From IMG/VR virus record IMGVR_UViG_3300045988_150439: DNA of 64,000 nucleotides. The stretch is one strand, 5' to 3'. Within the stretch, counting starts at the first letter, position 1. Every line of letters starts with the position of its first letter. The DNA is from a virus (lineage: Duplodnaviria > Heunggongvirae > Uroviricota > Caudoviricetes). Made by a program: the position numbers and the translations under genes. A model generated the notes under the pieces. It saw nothing but the letters and a program-made list of their open reading frames with translations. It searched no databases and was not told the origin of the DNA. Below are positions 1,287-15,311 of this stretch, one piece after another.

Positions 1287-2990
1287 TTGATACTAATGGA
1301 ATCGATAGAATCATTTCTAAAAAATTTTCTAGTTTCAGATCATCGGGTTGCCGTCATAAAAGGAGATTGGGGCGTTGGTAAAACTCATTATTGGAATAGT
1401 TTTTATACTAAGCATTCTGAAGGATTAGATTTTAATGCATATTCGTATGTTTCTTTGTTTGGGGTTAACTCTATTGGTGATATTAAAAAAACTCTTTATC
1501 ATTGTGCCACACCAATTAATGAAAAGAAATATAAAGAACTAATTTTATCTGAAACGGATCGAACTATGATTCGTTATAGAAATGGGTTTTGGGGATGGTT
1601 GAAATACAACTCCTTGTCAAAATTTTTAATACATTTCGGAAAGAACGATTTTTTTGGGTTCAAAACAGATAACCTGCTGTCATCTCTTGAGTATAAATTT
1701 GTTAATAATTATTTGGTTTGTATTGATGATGTTGAAAGAAAAGGTAATTCGCTAGAAGTTAAAGAAATTATGGGGGTAATTGATGAATTAGCAAGAAGAA
1801 AAGGTTGCAAAGTTGTTCTAATTTTAAATGAAGATAATTTACATGATGAAACTGCAAAAAAACAGTTTTTAGAGTACAGAGAAAAAGTAATTGATGTCGA
1901 AATAAAATACGATCCTACGCCTGAGAAGAACTTACGTAAAGTTTTTTATGAAACTGATTCTGATTTTCTTTTGTTAAAAGTCTTAGCAAATGACTTAGGC
2001 ATTAAAAATATCCGTATATTAAATAAAATAAAAACATCTCTGGTTAATCTTAGGAATGAGCTAAGCTTGGCAGAGGATAAGGTTAGAGAAAGTTTTATCA
2101 ATAGATTGGTTCTGTTTTCAGTGGTTTACTATTCTGGTGTTCCAGGTGTTGATTATGCCTTGTTTAAAGAATCAATTAAAAACATACATGTATTTGATTA
2201 CATGTTAGATGATAAAAAGGATGATTCTGTATATTCATTTATTAATAGTCTTGATATTATTTATGAACGAGCGGAAATTGCTTTCGATGATGACATAGAT
2301 TTTTATCTCAAGAATGGTTATCTTTCTACTGAAAGCAATATTCGAGGTATAATAGAAGAAAAAAATAAACAATATAAAGAACACAAGGCTTTATGTGAGG
2401 TTAACAATGTTTGGGATATTTTTAGTGACTCATTCAAGGACAATGAATCTGAGTTTATTTCTAAGATAAAATGTGTAATTAACGACAATCTTTCACACAT
2501 ACCTGTTGCTCACTTCATAGGCTTGATTGATATCTTAAATAGATTGTTGATTGATTGTGATAGTTATATAGAGGCATATGCAGATGCCTTTGTTAGCCAA
2601 GATGATGCTTATACTGCTTTTCGGAATTTGTATGTAGAGATATTTGGTAACGAAAAGTTAGGTCTGCTAATTCAAAAAAAATTGATGGATAAGAAGCCTG
2701 AAGAGACTAATTTAGAGAATGTTTTATACAAAATAATTGAAGGCAAATTTAATCATAGTGACATAGCATATCTTAACAGTTTCTCTGAAGATGATTATTT
2801 AAAGTGGATATTATCCCGCAATCAGGATGCTTTGGATTTAGTGAGAAAGGGGTTGCTCAGATTCAAAAGTATGCAAGAACTAACAGAAGAACAGCAAAAA
2901 ATCACGAATAAAGCAATAGGTGCATTAACGAAACTGGCCTCTAGATCAAGTCTTAACAAACTACGTGTGAGCAGATTGCTTAATAATTAA
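1287..2990 (+). CDS. KAP-family P-loop NTPase
   Basis: Walker A GDWGVGKTHYW near the N-terminus, 567 aa, strongly AT-rich relative to neighbours; domain order matches the KAP NTPase family (PifA-like). Confidence 0.55.
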   Translation: MILMESIESFLKNFLVSDHRVAVIKGDWGVGKTHYWNSFYTKHSEGLDFNAYSYVSLFGVNSIGDIKKTLYHCATPINEKKYKELILSETDRTMIRYRNGFWGWLKYNSLSKFLIHFGKNDFFGFKTDNLLSSLEYKFVNNYLVCIDDVERKGNSLEVKEIMGVIDELARRKGCKVVLILNEDNLHDETAKKQFLEYREKVIDVEIKYDPTPEKNLRKVFYETDSDFLLLKVLANDLGIKNIRILNKIKTSLVNLRNELSLAEDKVRESFINRLVLFSVVYYSGVPGVDYALFKESIKNIHVFDYMLDDKKDDSVYSFINSLDIIYERAEIAFDDDIDFYLKNGYLSTESNIRGIIEEKNKQYKEHKALCEVNNVWDIFSDSFKDNESEFISKIKCVINDNLSHIPVAHFIGLIDILNRLLIDCDSYIEAYADAFVSQDDAYTAFRNLYVEIFGNEKLGLLIQKKLMDKKPEETNLENVLYKIIEGKFNHSDIAYLNSFSEDDYLKWILSRNQDALDLVRKGLLRFKSMQELTEEQQKITNKAIGALTKLASRSSLNKLRVSRLLNN

Positions 2991-10854: not shown

Positions 10855-10929
10855 GATGGTGTAGCTCAGCGGTAGAGCAGTTGGCTGTTAACCAACTGGT
10901 CGGTGGTTCGAATCCACCCACCATCGCCA
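10855..10929 (+). tRNA. tRNA-Asn (anticodon GTT)
   Basis: Hand-folded cloverleaf: acceptor gatggtg/caccatc, D-arm gctcagcggtagagc, anticodon loop ctGTTaa, T-arm ggtggttcgaatccacc, encoded CCA. Confidence 0.8.
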
Positions 10930-10932
10930 ATG

Positions 10933-11007
10933 CCGGTTTAGCTCAGTTGGTAGAGCACCTGCCTTGTAAGCAGGATGTCAGCGGTTCGATCCCGTTAACC
11001 GGCACCA
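10933..11007 (+). tRNA. tRNA-Thr (anticodon TGT)
   Basis: Acceptor gccggtt/aaccggc, D-arm gctcagttggtagagc, anticodon stem cctgc/gcagg with loop ctTGTaa, T-loop ttcgatc, encoded CCA. Confidence 0.75.
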
Positions 11008-11026
11008 ACACAACAGGTAAGAGCAT

Positions 11027-11100
11027 TGGGCGAATCGGCGATACTGACCCACAAGCCCGTAAATCGATAGAGTCAGACCAGTGCTCTTACCGTTGTGAGG
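11027..11100 (+). repeat. long-range hairpin element ending in cttaccgttgtga
   Basis: gtaagagcattgg pairs with ccagtgctcttac (one G-U) enclosing about 48 nt; not foldable as a tRNA. Confidence 0.4.
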
Positions 11101-11156
11101 AAGTGCAGCTCTTTGAAGCAACCAGAAGATAAGCATCTGGCTTCACAACACAACGA

Positions 11157-11219
11157 TAAGATCATTACGGTTAATCGTCGTTCATGTGCACAATGACTGG
11201 TCGAAAGGTAGTGATCTTA
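11157..11219 (+). repeat. long-range hairpin element ending in cttaccgttgtga
   Basis: taagatcattac pairs with gtagtgatctta (one G-U); same 3' tail as the element at 11027-11100. Confidence 0.4.
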
Positions 11220-11327
11220 CCGTTGTGATGAATGCACAGGCTGATGTGCCGCAACTACAGTAGTGCGCGCTTTGCGGGGCTTGCTACAACCCTGTGTCGG
11301 AGTTCAGCACCGACCATCACAATAGCT

Positions 11328-11414
11328 GGAGAGTAGGGAGCATGGTGCTCAAGCGGTCTTGAAAACCGTCCCATTGCGCAAGCGATGATGGTTCGATTCC
11401 ATTACTCTCCGCCA
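11328..11414 (+). tRNA. tRNA-Ser (anticodon TGA), long variable arm
   Basis: 87 nt; acceptor ggagagt/actctcc, anticodon loop ctTGAaa, long extra arm, T-loop ttcgatt, encoded CCA. Confidence 0.7.
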
Positions 11415-11567: not shown

Positions 11568-11592
11568 TCAAAGGGGCTTCGGCCCCTTTTCT
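11568..11592. terminator. bidirectional Rho-independent terminator
   Basis: GC hairpin aaaggggcttcggcccctttt with A-run before and T-run after; lies between the tRNA block and the 3' end of the minus-strand gene 11593-12804. Confidence 0.6.
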
Positions 11593-12804
11593 TCAAAAAA
11601 GTTTTATAAATTCATAATTCTGGTCAATTAAGGATTCAATACACACCATGCAAAAATCTACATCGTTAAAATCAGGTGTGTAATATTCATCCTCATAACA
11701 TTCATTTAGACCTTCAATCAATTTTTCTTTAAAAACTCCCCACGTTTCAATATGAACCATTTCCATATAAGGCGCATGTGTATGTACTTGCAATACATCC
11801 CAGGTGTCTATAACCTCGATCCGCGGCTTGCAATTAATTTTTTCTAAATATGCCCTCCCAGAATTGTAAATTTTCGACATTGATGCCCCAAAACCTGATG
11901 GTTGGTAATGAGTGTAAATGTCATAAATTTTTTGTCCTATTCTAGGGAGTTGAGAAGCATTGGATATTTGTGGCGAATGAAAGTATCGCTCTATGGAAGA
12001 AAACGCAGAAACATTAACTAGAGTAATCGTATATGGTGCTAAAGTTCTCTCGTTCAAATTTCTACATAAAATAGCAAACCCATGGCTATTAGTCTTTTCA
12101 CCGTCTGAGGACATTTTTGCCATGCTGGCTTTAATAACATTCAATTTCGAATGTAAACGAGAAGTGGAAGTCGGTTGATTATACATTTCATCATCATACA
12201 AACATATATGAAACCCGCCAAGATGACGAAATGAGAACTTGAGTGCTTCTTCCGCAATAACTAATTTATTAATATCTAAAGGAGTAAGTGATACGTTACC
12301 TTGTAAATCATAGCAAGGTTCTAAACATAGAAAGTTTTTCTTCTGCCACACAATCATATTAAAAATAAAGTGTCTAACCAAAGGTGGCCAGTCAGGTGAT
12401 ATAAGTACATTGGTAATATCTCCATCAGACAAGTATGACAAGTAACTTTTTAGTTCCGCAGCATATGCCACTAGCTCAGTTCCAGCTTCCCTTGTTGGTG
12501 TTGAAAAATTTTTTAACTCAATAAGAACTAAGGATTCATTCTCTGTTGAATAAGCAACGACATCAGGTCTTAATATCTCAGATTTTGTTGCTGAGATATT
12601 TTCATCATCTGTCATTAAATGTAACAATGTTATATTCTTTAAACAAAACTGATAACTCTCCTTAATTTTTTTCTCTTCGGGTCTTTTCGGATTAAATTCA
12701 TTTAATTTATCAATATTGATGATTGAATTATATAATCCATCTTGATCAGATAATTTGTCAATTATCCAATTTTGCATTTCCTTTTCGCTTAAAAATATTG
12801 ACAC
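11593..12804 (-). CDS. PD-(D/E)xK nuclease-like protein, putative (second gene of an AT-rich two-gene module)
   Basis: 403 aa; N-terminal region carries a PD-x14-ExK arrangement (RPDVVAYSTENESLVLIELK); GTG start with GGAG RBS; strongly AT-rich; 26 bp downstream of its partner. Confidence 0.4.
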   Translation of the reverse strand: MSIFLSEKEMQNWIIDKLSDQDGLYNSIINIDKLNEFNPKRPEEKKIKESYQFCLKNITLLHLMTDDENISATKSEILRPDVVAYSTENESLVLIELKNFSTPTREAGTELVAYAAELKSYLSYLSDGDITNVLISPDWPPLVRHFIFNMIVWQKKNFLCLEPCYDLQGNVSLTPLDINKLVIAEEALKFSFRHLGGFHICLYDDEMYNQPTSTSRLHSKLNVIKASMAKMSSDGEKTNSHGFAILCRNLNERTLAPYTITLVNVSAFSSIERYFHSPQISNASQLPRIGQKIYDIYTHYQPSGFGASMSKIYNSGRAYLEKINCKPRIEVIDTWDVLQVHTHAPYMEMVHIETWGVFKEKLIEGLNECYEDEYYTPDFNDVDFCMVCIESLIDQNYEFIKLF

Positions 12805-12830
12805 TAATTAGGCTCCCGTTAAACCAAAAA

Positions 12831-13652
12831 TTAAAAATCTTGCTTTACTTTATCCATAGTCAGAATTTTGCTAATAATTGAAGATTCAAATCCATCTAAA
12901 CCTGAGAGAAAGTTAATTAGCTTTTGGATATGTTGTTCTTTAGGTATAAGTATATATTTTATATCATTGAACTCAAAATCAATGCCAAACTTTGAAAATT
13001 TTGAGCTAATTTTTGCTTTGTCATCAGAAGTGATAACACGCTCCAAACTCAGACTAGGCCATAAATCACCAATAAAAGGAGCTGGCACATAACGCCACTC
13101 TTTCTCGTCTGCATATATATAATTCTCTATTGTTTTATTATCTTTTCGCTCTAGCTTGCCTCTGTAATTTTTCATATAACGCAGTAAATTATATAGATCA
13201 GAATATTCTGCTTTCAATTTCTCAAACTCTATTCTGTTTTTGGTATCTAAATTTCCTCTAGCCTTCCAAAGCGGCACCAACTTTTTTTTAATAAGTCGAA
13301 TTCTGGCATTGTATTTAGAAAATATTTCACTGCTCTTATTCATATATAGAACTGGGTGTAGACCTTTCTTTTCCGCCCAAGACTTAGTTAGCCCAAGACC
13401 GAATTCCCCATATTTTCCGCTATGATCTCTGATTTGTGATAGTTTTATGTCACAAAACGATACCATTGGTACTGCAAACCTCCTGCGTCCCCCGACTCCT
13501 CTTATTTCCTCGCGAGCAAGAAATGGTTTAAAATATTTCTCAGCCAATATGCTATAGAAAGCATCTTCGTTTTTTGTAAAATGAAACAACGTGGTTGGAT
13601 GAAGACTATAAACAGATTCAACATTCGCATCAGGATTTTCAAGGATAGTCAT
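12831..13652 (-). CDS. Abi-like hypothetical protein (first gene of the AT-rich two-gene module)
   Basis: 273 aa from the ATG at 13652 (RBS aaggtg); AT-rich, Lys-rich; gene sizes and order resemble two-gene abortive-infection modules such as AbiGi/AbiGii, but this is an unverified recollection. Confidence 0.35.
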   Translation of the reverse strand: MTILENPDANVESVYSLHPTTLFHFTKNEDAFYSILAEKYFKPFLAREEIRGVGGRRRFAVPMVSFCDIKLSQIRDHSGKYGEFGLGLTKSWAEKKGLHPVLYMNKSSEIFSKYNARIRLIKKKLVPLWKARGNLDTKNRIEFEKLKAEYSDLYNLLRYMKNYRGKLERKDNKTIENYIYADEKEWRYVPAPFIGDLWPSLSLERVITSDDKAKISSKFSKFGIDFEFNDIKYILIPKEQHIQKLINFLSGLDGFESSIISKILTMDKVKQDF

Positions 13653-13801
13653 TTTACACCTTGTGGAAAGCCAGTTTAGTTCTGTAAATAGTATCACACG
13701 ACAGGCGGCTATTCTTCTATCAATAAAGGATAGGTAAGCACTTACTTTTTACGCGCGTTAATTGTATAGTTCTTTCGGATACTCACTTGAAAGGACTCAA
13801 T

Positions 13802-13945
13802 ATGGGAAATAAATGTAAACATGCGCGTCGCGCATCTCGTCAGGTGCAGAAGTCAAATCCATACATTCACGAGCACTACCACCTCAGCTCTTTCACTAAC
13901 CGCTACACGTTCCCCAGCGAAGCGCATAACGAGGCAAGGCAATGA
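13802..13945 (+). CDS. small basic protein (47 aa), putative
   Basis: ATG with aagga RBS; stop overlaps the start of the glutaredoxin gene (ATGA), suggesting translational coupling. Confidence 0.25.
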   Translation: MGNKCKHARRASRQVQKSNPYIHEHYHLSSFTNRYTFPSEAHNEARQ

Positions 13946-14282: not shown

Positions 14283-14891
14283 ATGCGTTTAGAAAATTGC
14301 CTAGAAGATATGAGTGTCATTAGCAATGCCCTTGCTACTGTGACCTCTAACGCTTCACGCTTTTCAAACGCAAAGCCTACAGCTAAATCTGGGCGTGATT
14401 TTATTGAACCGCGTGGATATCGACGCTTCCGTGGCACGATGAAGCCCTCTGCGAAATTCACAGGATTCAAAACACAAACCTATGTGAGCACTGCGGCTAT
14501 TCCTGTTCAAGAGAACCGCGATGCGGCACAGCTGGCAAAGATTGAAAGCAAGCTCGCAAAATTGACGGCGAAACACGTTCGCTTAGCCCATGCCATCTCT
14601 GGATGGAAAGCGGAAAAGATTCGCAGCAACTTCGGTGAAAGTCGTTACGAAGAACTGAAGAACGTTGACCTGACCATTCGTGGTTTGGAGGGATTCGTTA
14701 ACAAGTTGATTCGCGACTCTGAGCAACCTCATCCATATTTGAAACGCTTGAGCGATTCTGTAACTGAGTATCGTTTAGCTATCTCTGATCTGCTATTGAT
14801 TTTAAATCAGTGTTTTAACGACGTAAACGTCATCGAATCGCAGACTGGCCTCATTGATGAGGACGTCTTCGCCAACTTCTCATTCCATTGA
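14283..14891 (+). CDS. hypothetical protein (possible antitoxin-position partner of the YafO-like gene)
   Basis: 202 aa ORF with aagagg RBS, ending 10 bp before the YafO-like gene; no recognised fold. Confidence 0.4.
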   Translation: MRLENCLEDMSVISNALATVTSNASRFSNAKPTAKSGRDFIEPRGYRRFRGTMKPSAKFTGFKTQTYVSTAAIPVQENRDAAQLAKIESKLAKLTAKHVRLAHAISGWKAEKIRSNFGESRYEELKNVDLTIRGLEGFVNKLIRDSEQPHPYLKRLSDSVTEYRLAISDLLLILNQCFNDVNVIESQTGLIDEDVFANFSFH

Positions 14892-14900
14892 GGTTGAACG

Positions 14901-15311
14901 ATGAAGATCACATGGAACAGTGATAGTTACGCCCAATTTTTAAAGCCGACCTTCGATATAAAGCCTGACTTAGAGATTACGTTACTCAACGATTTCAAGT
15001 CGTTTAAACAAGGCATGTACCCAGCCCTATTCGGCAAAGATGGCCCGTATACGGCTCCTGGTGCTATCGTGTCCTCCCGCGTTTATCACGTTCATCTCTT
15101 GTTCACGAAGCAAGAACGAACCAGCAGCCGCAGCAGATTCAATTGCACAAGCGACCGTGCACTCGTTTACAGTCAACATGCACATTTCCAAGATGTGTAT
15201 AGCCTATTGGCAATCTTCCCTAACAACGCACATCAGTACGCGAAAGATCCAAAAATTATGGTCGATATCGCTGCCTACGCGGCCGCATTTCAAGCTCTCA
15301 CTAACCCTTAA
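14901..15311 (+). CDS. YafO-family toxin-like protein
   Basis: 136 aa; segments FGKDGPY...VYHVHLLF, RALVYSQHAHF and LLAIFPNNAHQYAKD...AAYAAAF parallel E. coli YafO as recalled from memory (not searched). Confidence 0.45.
   Translation: MKITWNSDSYAQFLKPTFDIKPDLEITLLNDFKSFKQGMYPALFGKDGPYTAPGAIVSSRVYHVHLLFTKQERTSSRSRFNCTSDRALVYSQHAHFQDVYSLLAIFPNNAHQYAKDPKIMVDIAAYAAAFQALTNP

Follow-up and report, generated by a model that had tools for sequence, protein, structure and literature searches.

Two Stacked Cargo Genes, an AbiGi-Family Gene and a Candidate PD-(D/E)xK Nuclease Gene, in a Variable Slot of an SSU5-Type Phage-Plasmid

The Locus

When two small genes lie head to tail in a mobile element, are they parts of one machine, or have they simply come to rest side by side? 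We have tried to answer this question for a pair of minus-strand genes in the IMG/VR virus record IMGVR_UViG_3300045988_150439 (Caudoviricetes), of which a stretch of 64,000 nucleotides, here called the window, was analyzed. The upstream gene (gene A) belongs by profile to the AbiGi family of abortive infection (Abi) proteins; the downstream gene (gene B) has the motif and predicted fold of a PD-(D/E)xK nuclease. Our answer, toward which we lean modestly, is that they would be two autonomous single-gene effectors rather than one system.

Gene A occupies 12831..13652 and encodes 273 amino acids (aa) counted from its ATG; an alternative GTG start at 13697 would give 288 aa, and RefSeq takes the 273-aa form. 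Gene B occupies 11593..12804 and encodes 403 aa from a GTG, a start that is supported because aligned homologues have their methionine (they begin "MSIF...") at the same position. A preliminary description of this DNA had reported two co-oriented open reading frames (ORFs) of these sizes with a 26-bp gap, and both are indeed there. Within the gap (12805..12830, minus strand), a GGGAG ribosome-binding site at 12813-12817 lies 8 nt 5' of the gene B GTG, and the terminator scan reported no terminator-like hairpin in this spacer, so that co-transcription of the two genes is likely. The promoter presumably lies in the region 5' of gene A (13653..13786, minus strand), within which the variable slot described below has its right boundary (~13730); a consensus promoter scan found no site upstream of gene A (8 sites were found vs 11.1 expected in shuffled sequence).

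The pair had been called AT-rich, and it is. Gene A has a GC content of 0.341 and gene B one of 0.331 (0.285 and 0.272, respectively, at third codon positions, GC3), or 34% against 45% for the backbone. Segments of 2138 bp taken over the whole sequence have a mean GC of 0.452 +/- 0.032, which puts the cassette ~3.6 standard deviations below the mean; it is the second-lowest GC region of the window. The gene A protein is also as rich in lysine as had been noted (11.7%).

On its left, the slot is bounded by a GC-rich hairpin, GGGGCttcgGCCCC (11573..11588), set between an A-run and a T-run, 5 nt from the stop of gene B (RNA fold -13.2 kcal/mol, z = -1.7 vs shuffles). This hairpin is terminator-like in both directions, and to that extent the "bidirectional terminator" said to bound the pair is real; it bounds the cassette on the 3' side only, however, and it is a feature of the backbone, because relatives with other cargo keep it (the identical hairpin is found at the K. 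oxytoca locus L003, and it is conserved in relatives regardless of cargo). It probably terminates the plus-strand tRNA cluster plus whatever minus-strand cargo is present. Might the cassette also include an RNA component? Rfam found only backbone tRNAs in or next to it, with no other RNA family as a candidate RNA antitoxin, and no tandem repeats of the ToxI kind were found in or beside it; we have rejected an RNA antitoxin and ToxI-like repeats on these two results.

Gene A: An AbiGi Protein with a Predicted ADP-Ribosyltransferase Fold

Gene A matches Pfam PF10899 at 89.2 bits (cutoff 22.4; 4.5e-25) and the PADLOC AbiGi model at 158 bits (6.8e-47, aa 13-273 of 273); it also matches phrog_13416, and its RefSeq label reads "abortive infection system antitoxin AbiGi family protein." Against the NCBIfam equivalog NF042957 (lactococcal AbiGI), it reaches 51.2 bits, where the curated cutoff is 300. 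By these profiles, gene A is a genuine AbiGi-family member but not the equivalog of lactococcal AbiGI, and the "antitoxin" in its label is a prediction.

The structural model of gene A has an ADP-ribosyltransferase (ART) core fold, with DarT as the best match, and the alignment is consistent with it. H24 (in LFHFT, 13581-13583) and S65 (in PMVSFCD, 13458-13460) are at least 90% conserved, and E183-x-E185 (in ADEKEWRY, 13098-13106) is invariant, all on the minus strand; together, they fit the [H/R]-[S/Y]-ExE signature of ARTs, a placement that we infer from conservation. The resemblance to the nucleic acid-directed ART clade (Tpt1/KptA and DarT, which in DarTG ADP-ribosylates thymidine in ssDNA) lies in the conserved near-N-terminal histidine and the invariant ExE before a beta-strand. 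The differences are large: sequence identity is just 10-15%, a large helical insert rich in lysine (aa 110-157) and an additional C-terminal region set gene A apart, and no macrodomain partner of the DarG kind stands beside it. At the level of sequence, a search for solved structures linked to AbiGi returned no Protein Data Bank (PDB) chain at E<=10. The fold assignment is not new, because a 2025 survey of ART families already lists AbiGi (PF10899) as ART-like, near DarT and DUF2971 (PMC12522546).

Gene B: A Candidate Nuclease Outside the Described Families

The PD-x14-ExK arrangement attributed to the second protein has held up well. D81-x14-E96-x-K98 (RPDVVAYSTENESLVLIELK) is invariant in 43 homologues, with identity to gene B down to 32%; on the minus strand, these catalytic candidates are encoded at 12562-12564, 12517-12519 and 12511-12513, inside a predicted nuclease core of ~aa 58-165 (12310..12633). 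After the triad, R105, G108-T109-E110 and Y114 are also invariant in the alignment, and the ExxxY helix that follows ExK is one that we take to resemble the QxxxY motif of RecB/NucS-type nucleases. In the AlphaFold2 (AF2) model (predicted local distance difference test, pLDDT, 92.7), a restriction-endonuclease-like alpha/beta core is present, and its fold matches are NucS (11.1), N.BspD6I (10.2), FokI (8.8), Can2 (8.8), McrC (8.2), SduA (7.4) and HamA (7.2). The C-terminal alpha+beta region (~aa 170-403; 11596..12297, minus strand) has invariant residues of its own (Y203, D204, G242, F243, P257, E330, W355 and G356), and its fold comparisons give nothing beyond generic alpha+beta domains of the ferredoxin-like and dimerization types. 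Structure prediction, which had been suggested along with the preliminary description, thus gave a PD-(D/E)xK core for gene B and an ART fold for gene A; the profile searches suggested with it gave AbiGi for gene A and no curated family for gene B.

The best Pfam match of gene B is HSDR_N_2 (16.7 bits, E 0.008), under the cutoff of 25, and its relatives have similarly subthreshold Pfam matches. PADLOC-DB 2.0.0 (5027 models) gave no match at E<=1 and NCBIfam gave none; when 10 distant relatives were compared with PADLOC, the sole match was PDC-S02 at E 0.03, which is not meaningful. Gene B does match phrog_30092, a family of unknown function, and it has a good many relatives. With a word-seeded search, 54 homologues of 390-433 aa came to light, every one annotated as "hypothetical" and without a Pfam domain, and an exhaustive profile search through 1.84 billion representatives gave 458 clusters at E<=1e-3. 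The family comes in a short form of ~400 aa and a long form of 700-750 aa (P0221-P0318), whose C-terminal extension of ~330 aa has no Pfam or PADLOC domain. By fold and motif, then, gene B is placed in the PD-(D/E)xK superfamily and in no described family or catalogued defense system.

Its likeness to NucS/EndoMS, FokI, N.BspD6I, McrC, Can2/Card1, Shedu SduA and Hachiman HamA is the D...ExK triad and then the ExxxY helix. Unlike in these enzymes, the nuclease domain of gene B is N-terminal and is followed by a conserved ~230-aa alpha+beta region with no informative match, and gene B has no helicase, CARF, ATPase or methyltransferase partner.

Could gene B be AbiGii, the second protein of the lactococcal AbiG system? 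The preliminary description had likened the pair to AbiGi/AbiGii, and the likeness stands for gene A, a true AbiGi by PF10899 and PADLOC, and fails for gene B. No Pfam or PADLOC AbiGii model matches gene B at E<=1, and its fold is that of PD-(D/E)xK; it has a recognizable fold, whereas AbiGii is reported to have no PDB analogue in a 2026 review of lactococcal Abi systems, in which the mechanism of AbiG is called unknown (PMC13064643). We have rejected the identification on these grounds. What is known already about this locus is the AbiGi annotation of gene A; what is new is gene B as an uncharacterized nuclease-type candidate defense gene in a mobile-element hotspot. The literature that we searched makes no mention of the protein accessions WP_001308880 and WP_072644912.

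A Variable Slot with Fixed Flanks

By its homologies, the window belongs to an E. coli phage-plasmid of the SSU5 type. The flanks of the cassette match SSU5-like phages (Escherichia phages CMS-2020a and Cyrano and Klebsiella phage-plasmids). Across the whole of the 2.5-kb query, there are 18 matching E. coli plasmids (~110 kb, typed IncFIB and non-mobilizable) with an identity of 98.6-99.8%, and the flanks alone match 590 further plasmids. Among complete E. coli genomes, the flanks are found in 221 and the cassette in 19 of the 221, always plasmid-borne. Homology to relatives ends at 11590-11592 and resumes at ~13730-13780, in the 5' region of phoH; the variable slot lies between tRNA-Ser and phoH/grxA.

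What else does this slot hold? It is empty in L067, it holds AbiH in L004 (PADLOC AbiH 6e-27), and in K. oxytoca (L003), it holds a solo AbiGi that is 65% identical to gene A. In L002 (3196-4392), there is a 398-aa protein that matches no Pfam or PADLOC family, and in L068 (5212-6510), there is a 432-aa protein with a hydrophobic N-terminus (read from the sequence). These last two are 32% identical to each other; when they were tried as relatives of gene B (or gene A), no relatedness was found, and they may form another uncharacterized exclusion or Abi-type family.

The slot is, therefore, a recombination-prone cargo hotspot with fixed flanks and interchangeable AT-rich cargo, and the earlier view of the two genes as accessory cargo outside the replication backbone was right, in that slot contents vary among relatives. 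That the 2.1-kb cassette (11593 to ~13730) is horizontally acquired cargo is a part of our overall reading, and we hold it with the same measured preference. In the comparison with K. oxytoca, gene B fills the exact interval from the AbiGi stop to the backbone terminator, which fits the gain or loss of a separate cassette.

The adjacent tRNA genes had been thought suggestive of tRNA targeting. They are there whatever the cargo, and also where the slot is empty, and adjacency is uninformative about the cargo because the tRNAs are backbone in every cargo state; we have rejected the tRNA-targeting idea for this reason. In the window, the cluster (10855-11414, plus strand) consists of Asn-GTT, Thr-TGT and Ser-TGA. 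L002, L067 and L068 have an extra tRNA-Tyr between Asn and Thr, and an alignment break at 10931-10974 fits a deletion in the lineage of the window.

The P2/P4 and SSU5-group hotspots already described share with this slot a fixed position, conserved flanks and swappable AT-rich cargo. In the hotspot literature consulted, the tRNA-Ser/phoH slot is not singled out, and cargo of the gene A or gene B kind is not reported. A DefenseFinder survey of SSU5-group phage-plasmids reported AbiH, PrrC, PD-T4-3, PD-T7-5 and restriction-modification (RM), not AbiG (bioRxiv 10.1101/2025.09.12.675607); defense finders that require AbiGii before calling AbiG would likely miss this locus.

Do the Two Genes Form One System?

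If the two genes were a module, one would expect to meet them together elsewhere. Our look-ups in viral, plasmid and contig sequences amounted to ~40 independent contexts, and hidden Markov models (HMMs) of both families were searched against all ORFs of every fetched locus. AbiGi stands beside gene B solely in copies of the element of the window (L001, L027, L028, L044 and L045); the two genes co-occur in 0 of ~20 other gene B contexts and in 0 of ~20 other AbiGi contexts. The conserved unit across lineages that one looks for in a toxin-antitoxin pair was not found, the pair occurring, among the loci examined, only in the window-type element, and here, the earlier claim of a two-gene module fails.

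Most commonly, gene B closes a P2/186-like prophage whose genes run cI, optional cargo, int and gene B, and it starts -4 to +20 nt past the int stop. One identical prophage with gene B is inserted at four different chromosomal sites, and gene B therefore lies inside the prophage. It is also found beside tail-sheath and tail genes on a P2-like phage contig (L039; we take this place for the cargo slot of the P2 tail region), in an integrative-conjugative element (ICE; L012), directly after uvrB in Actinobacillus (L019), in an integrative element with ArdA (L007) and beside a retron-type HNH gene and an ATPase in Gluconobacter (L021). A long-form gene in Bacillus cereus (L022:3959-6070) has a "putative phage abortive infection protein" on one side and a reverse-transcriptase gene on the other, and another long-form locus is L043:1-2016. 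The P2 int-att interval and tail region are documented minor defense hotspots (bioRxiv 10.64898/2026.02.27.708500). In a Kosakonia P2-like prophage, the cI-int slot holds a 310-aa gene (L005:3976-4908; PADLOC "Effector TIR," 6e-7) and int is followed by a homologue of gene B, so that a single row of lysogeny-side genes contains two cargo genes.

AbiGi is just as independent. The close relatives of gene A, at 58-73% identity, are solo genes: of those at 73% and 71%, one is alone on a short contig and one is in a defense island; that at 60% directly follows a CI/S24 repressor, and that at 58% is the last gene of a prophage, next to ruvA. Fifteen further viral AbiGi loci (30-58% identity) have no conserved downstream partner; in one of them (L051), from a P2-like phage, AbiGi lies between tail-fiber-sized and tail-sheath genes, in the kind of slot that gene B occupies in L039. 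The surroundings of the 71% relative (L062/L063:1-10822) include putAbiC, a Peptidase_C14 (caspase-like)-WD40 protein, insertion sequence (IS) fragments and a large convergent gene adjoining an nSTAND/NB-ARC-like ATPase.

One AbiGi does have a nuclease attached to it. P0091 (L069:5001-6236) is a 411-aa HNH-AbiGi fusion (HNH at aa 46-93, AbiGi at ~aa 160-410) within a type I RM operon: HsdM, AlbA_2/ATPase, HsdS, the fusion, DUF4268 and AlbA_2/ATPase. Here, AbiGi is physically coupled to a nuclease and sited like RM-embedded defense genes. The DUF4268 gene after the fusion was tried as a relative of gene B and rejected (hhalign probability 0.1), and its protein had no PDB sequence match.

Is the locus then an AbiG system? 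Like the system on plasmid pCI750 of Lactococcus lactis, which consists of AbiGi and AbiGii, it is a co-oriented gene pair that is borne by a mobile element and opens with an AbiGi homologue. The second gene differs, its predicted fold being PD-(D/E)xK; gene A is distant from the lactococcal protein, and the relatives nearest to it are solo genes. AbiGii, the partner by which AbiG is defined, was tested for and is absent, and the locus is therefore not an AbiG system.

Other Features of the Element

A 52-aa ORF (13787..13945, plus strand) lies at the position of phoH and is read as a phoH remnant from its DNA homology to the phoH 5' region and from the partial-phoH annotation of RefSeq in L002; it has no Pfam match. 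Klebsiella relatives carry a full phoH plus gp49, some E. coli relatives retain gp49 without phoH, and a gp49-family gene is missing from the window.

A second variable slot appears to lie between grxA and the integrase (14283-15311, plus strand), where the window has a 202-aa ORF and then a YafO-family toxin (Pfam 7.9e-22). This pair is present in L001, L003 and L004; in L067 and L068, the integrase directly follows grxA. Directly after a ParA-like gene, the window also encodes a 567-aa protein with a P-loop-like N-terminus (GDWGVGKTH; 1287-2990, plus strand). Its gene lies in the island where the window is richest in AT (GC 0.31-0.34). The protein has a match in PADLOC to PDC-S49, a candidate family (6.9e-22), and is probably further defense-type cargo.

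Discussion

We have tried to picture how two such genes might work. The explanation that we prefer, by a little more than an even judgment, is that genes A and B would be two candidate anti-phage (or exclusion) effectors, each autonomous and made up of a single gene, that lie head-to-tail in a hotspot and probably share a transcript. In the plasmid state of the element, transcription of both would begin upstream of gene A. The gene A protein would be an NAD+-using, ART-like enzyme with a DarT/Tpt1-like fold, silent until infection; once infection is sensed, it would attach ADP-ribose to its target, a nucleic acid or a protein, and phage transcription or replication would be blocked. We regard it as a probable enzyme, and not as a passive "antitoxin," because of the fold and the H...S...ExE signature. 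Gene B would be a metal-dependent PD-(D/E)xK DNA endonuclease, whose C-terminal domain might gate or target cleavage, either by recognizing DNA that is foreign or modified, in the manner of Type IV enzymes, or through activation at the time of infection. It is presumably not freely toxic, because cI and int precede it in the same orientation, which we take to mean expression in lysogens. All of these biochemical activities, the trigger and the defense phenotype are predictions from sequence and structural models. In favor of this reading, lactococcal AbiG is described as an Abi-like system that is triggered by the major tail protein, its mechanism unknown (PMC12184496, PMC13064643); the two genes are, moreover, equally low in GC, and the cassette and its surroundings hold no candidate RNA antitoxin.

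Several considerations weigh against this proposal, and we would rather gather them here than pass over them. A defense or abortive-infection role is the most likely one, and it is read from family membership and location. The 2026 review found no PDB analogue for AbiGi (PMC13064643), and lactococcal AbiGi was non-toxic when expressed in E. coli, as was AbiGii (PMC3985639). Then, there is the behavior of the pair in its own lineage: both genes are present in all 18 cassette plasmids, their clusters at >=90% identity are of similar size (210 and 203 sequences), and with 26 bp and no terminator between them, they have the layout of an operon.

These last facts lead to the main rival, which is that of a functional link confined to this lineage. 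The two genes would form a chimeric two-component system, both parts being needed, in which AbiGi is the sensor, regulator or first enzyme and gene B is a nuclease effector in the place of AbiGii. Beyond co-orientation and the separate ribosome-binding site of gene B, it can be said for this idea that gene order and sizes mirror abiGi/abiGii (going by the preliminary description, with gene B at 403 aa), that a linkage of AbiGi to a nuclease exists in the HNH-AbiGi fusion P0091 and that, in P2/P4 hotspots, pieces taken from different systems are reported to be fused into chimeras that function (bioRxiv 10.64898/2026.02.27.708500). The joint conservation weighs little, because the pair-bearing plasmids are 98.6-99.8% identical across the queried region; moreover, neither set of ~20 other contexts contains both genes, and a 65%-identical AbiGi occupies the very same slot without gene B (L003). 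We consider the chimera unlikely, although it is the competitor to be taken most seriously.

It is also conceivable that defense has nothing to do with it, and that the two genes would work for the life cycle of the element itself or for counter-defense. Phage ARTs can act in host takeover, and gene A might modify host machinery as Alt and Mod of T4 do, with gene B serving in recombination, in the degradation of host DNA or as a selfish endonuclease; both families are mainly phage- or prophage-borne (PHROG families 13416 and 30092), and gene B is repeatedly coupled to an integrase gene. Both genes are optional, however, and in most relatives the slot is empty or holds other cargo. Gene B turns up in several unrelated positions (int-att, tail region, ICE and chromosomal sites), and in prophages it follows cI-int in the same orientation, just as one AbiGi directly follows a CI-like repressor; these are typical positions for lysogenic conversion or exclusion genes. 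The neighboring cargo, too, is often of the defense type (a TIR-like effector, AbiH, retron-type HNH plus ATPase, putAbiC and nSTAND). A role outside defense, thus, strikes us as decidedly improbable.

Still less probable, to our minds, is an addiction module that stabilizes the phage-plasmid, with AbiGi as antitoxin and gene B as nuclease toxin. A toxin role is plausible for a nuclease, the low-copy plasmid also carries a YafO-family toxin nearby, and Pfam and RefSeq do label AbiGi an "antitoxin." That label is predicted, though, and the lactococcal proteins, both of them, are non-toxic in E. coli (PMC3985639); gene B stands alone in many prophages, an ICE and chromosomes without AbiGi, which is therefore not needed, AbiGi also occurs alone, and its ART fold with the conserved ExE looks like that of an enzyme. 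The slimmest prospect of all, which we mention for its logic, is that of a mark-and-cut pair, in which gene A would tag phage or cellular DNA with ADP-ribose upon infection, by analogy with DarT on thymidine, and gene B, by means of its conserved C-terminal domain, would recognize and cleave the tagged nucleic acid, much as in modification-dependent restriction but with the mark written by the element itself. A weaker version of this idea would have gene B, by itself, as a new family of single-gene defense that has spread among P2-like prophages, ICEs and phage-plasmids.

What would two autonomous effectors mean for these families? On the mobile elements of enterobacteria, genes of the AbiGi type usually stand alone and are enzyme-like, and the "antitoxin" label that RefSeq has spread is thereby called into question; the mechanism of AbiG, still unknown, may involve ADP-ribosylation. 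Gene B represents an unannotated nuclease family of ~458 clusters that recurs in defense slots (the P2 int-att interval, the P2 tail-gene region, an ICE and the SSU5 slot), that has no model in PADLOC-DB 2.0.0 and that offers a well-defined candidate for phage challenge. For the phage-plasmids themselves, one swap-prone cargo slot is now defined in the SSU5 type, which is common in clinical E. coli, Klebsiella and Salmonella.

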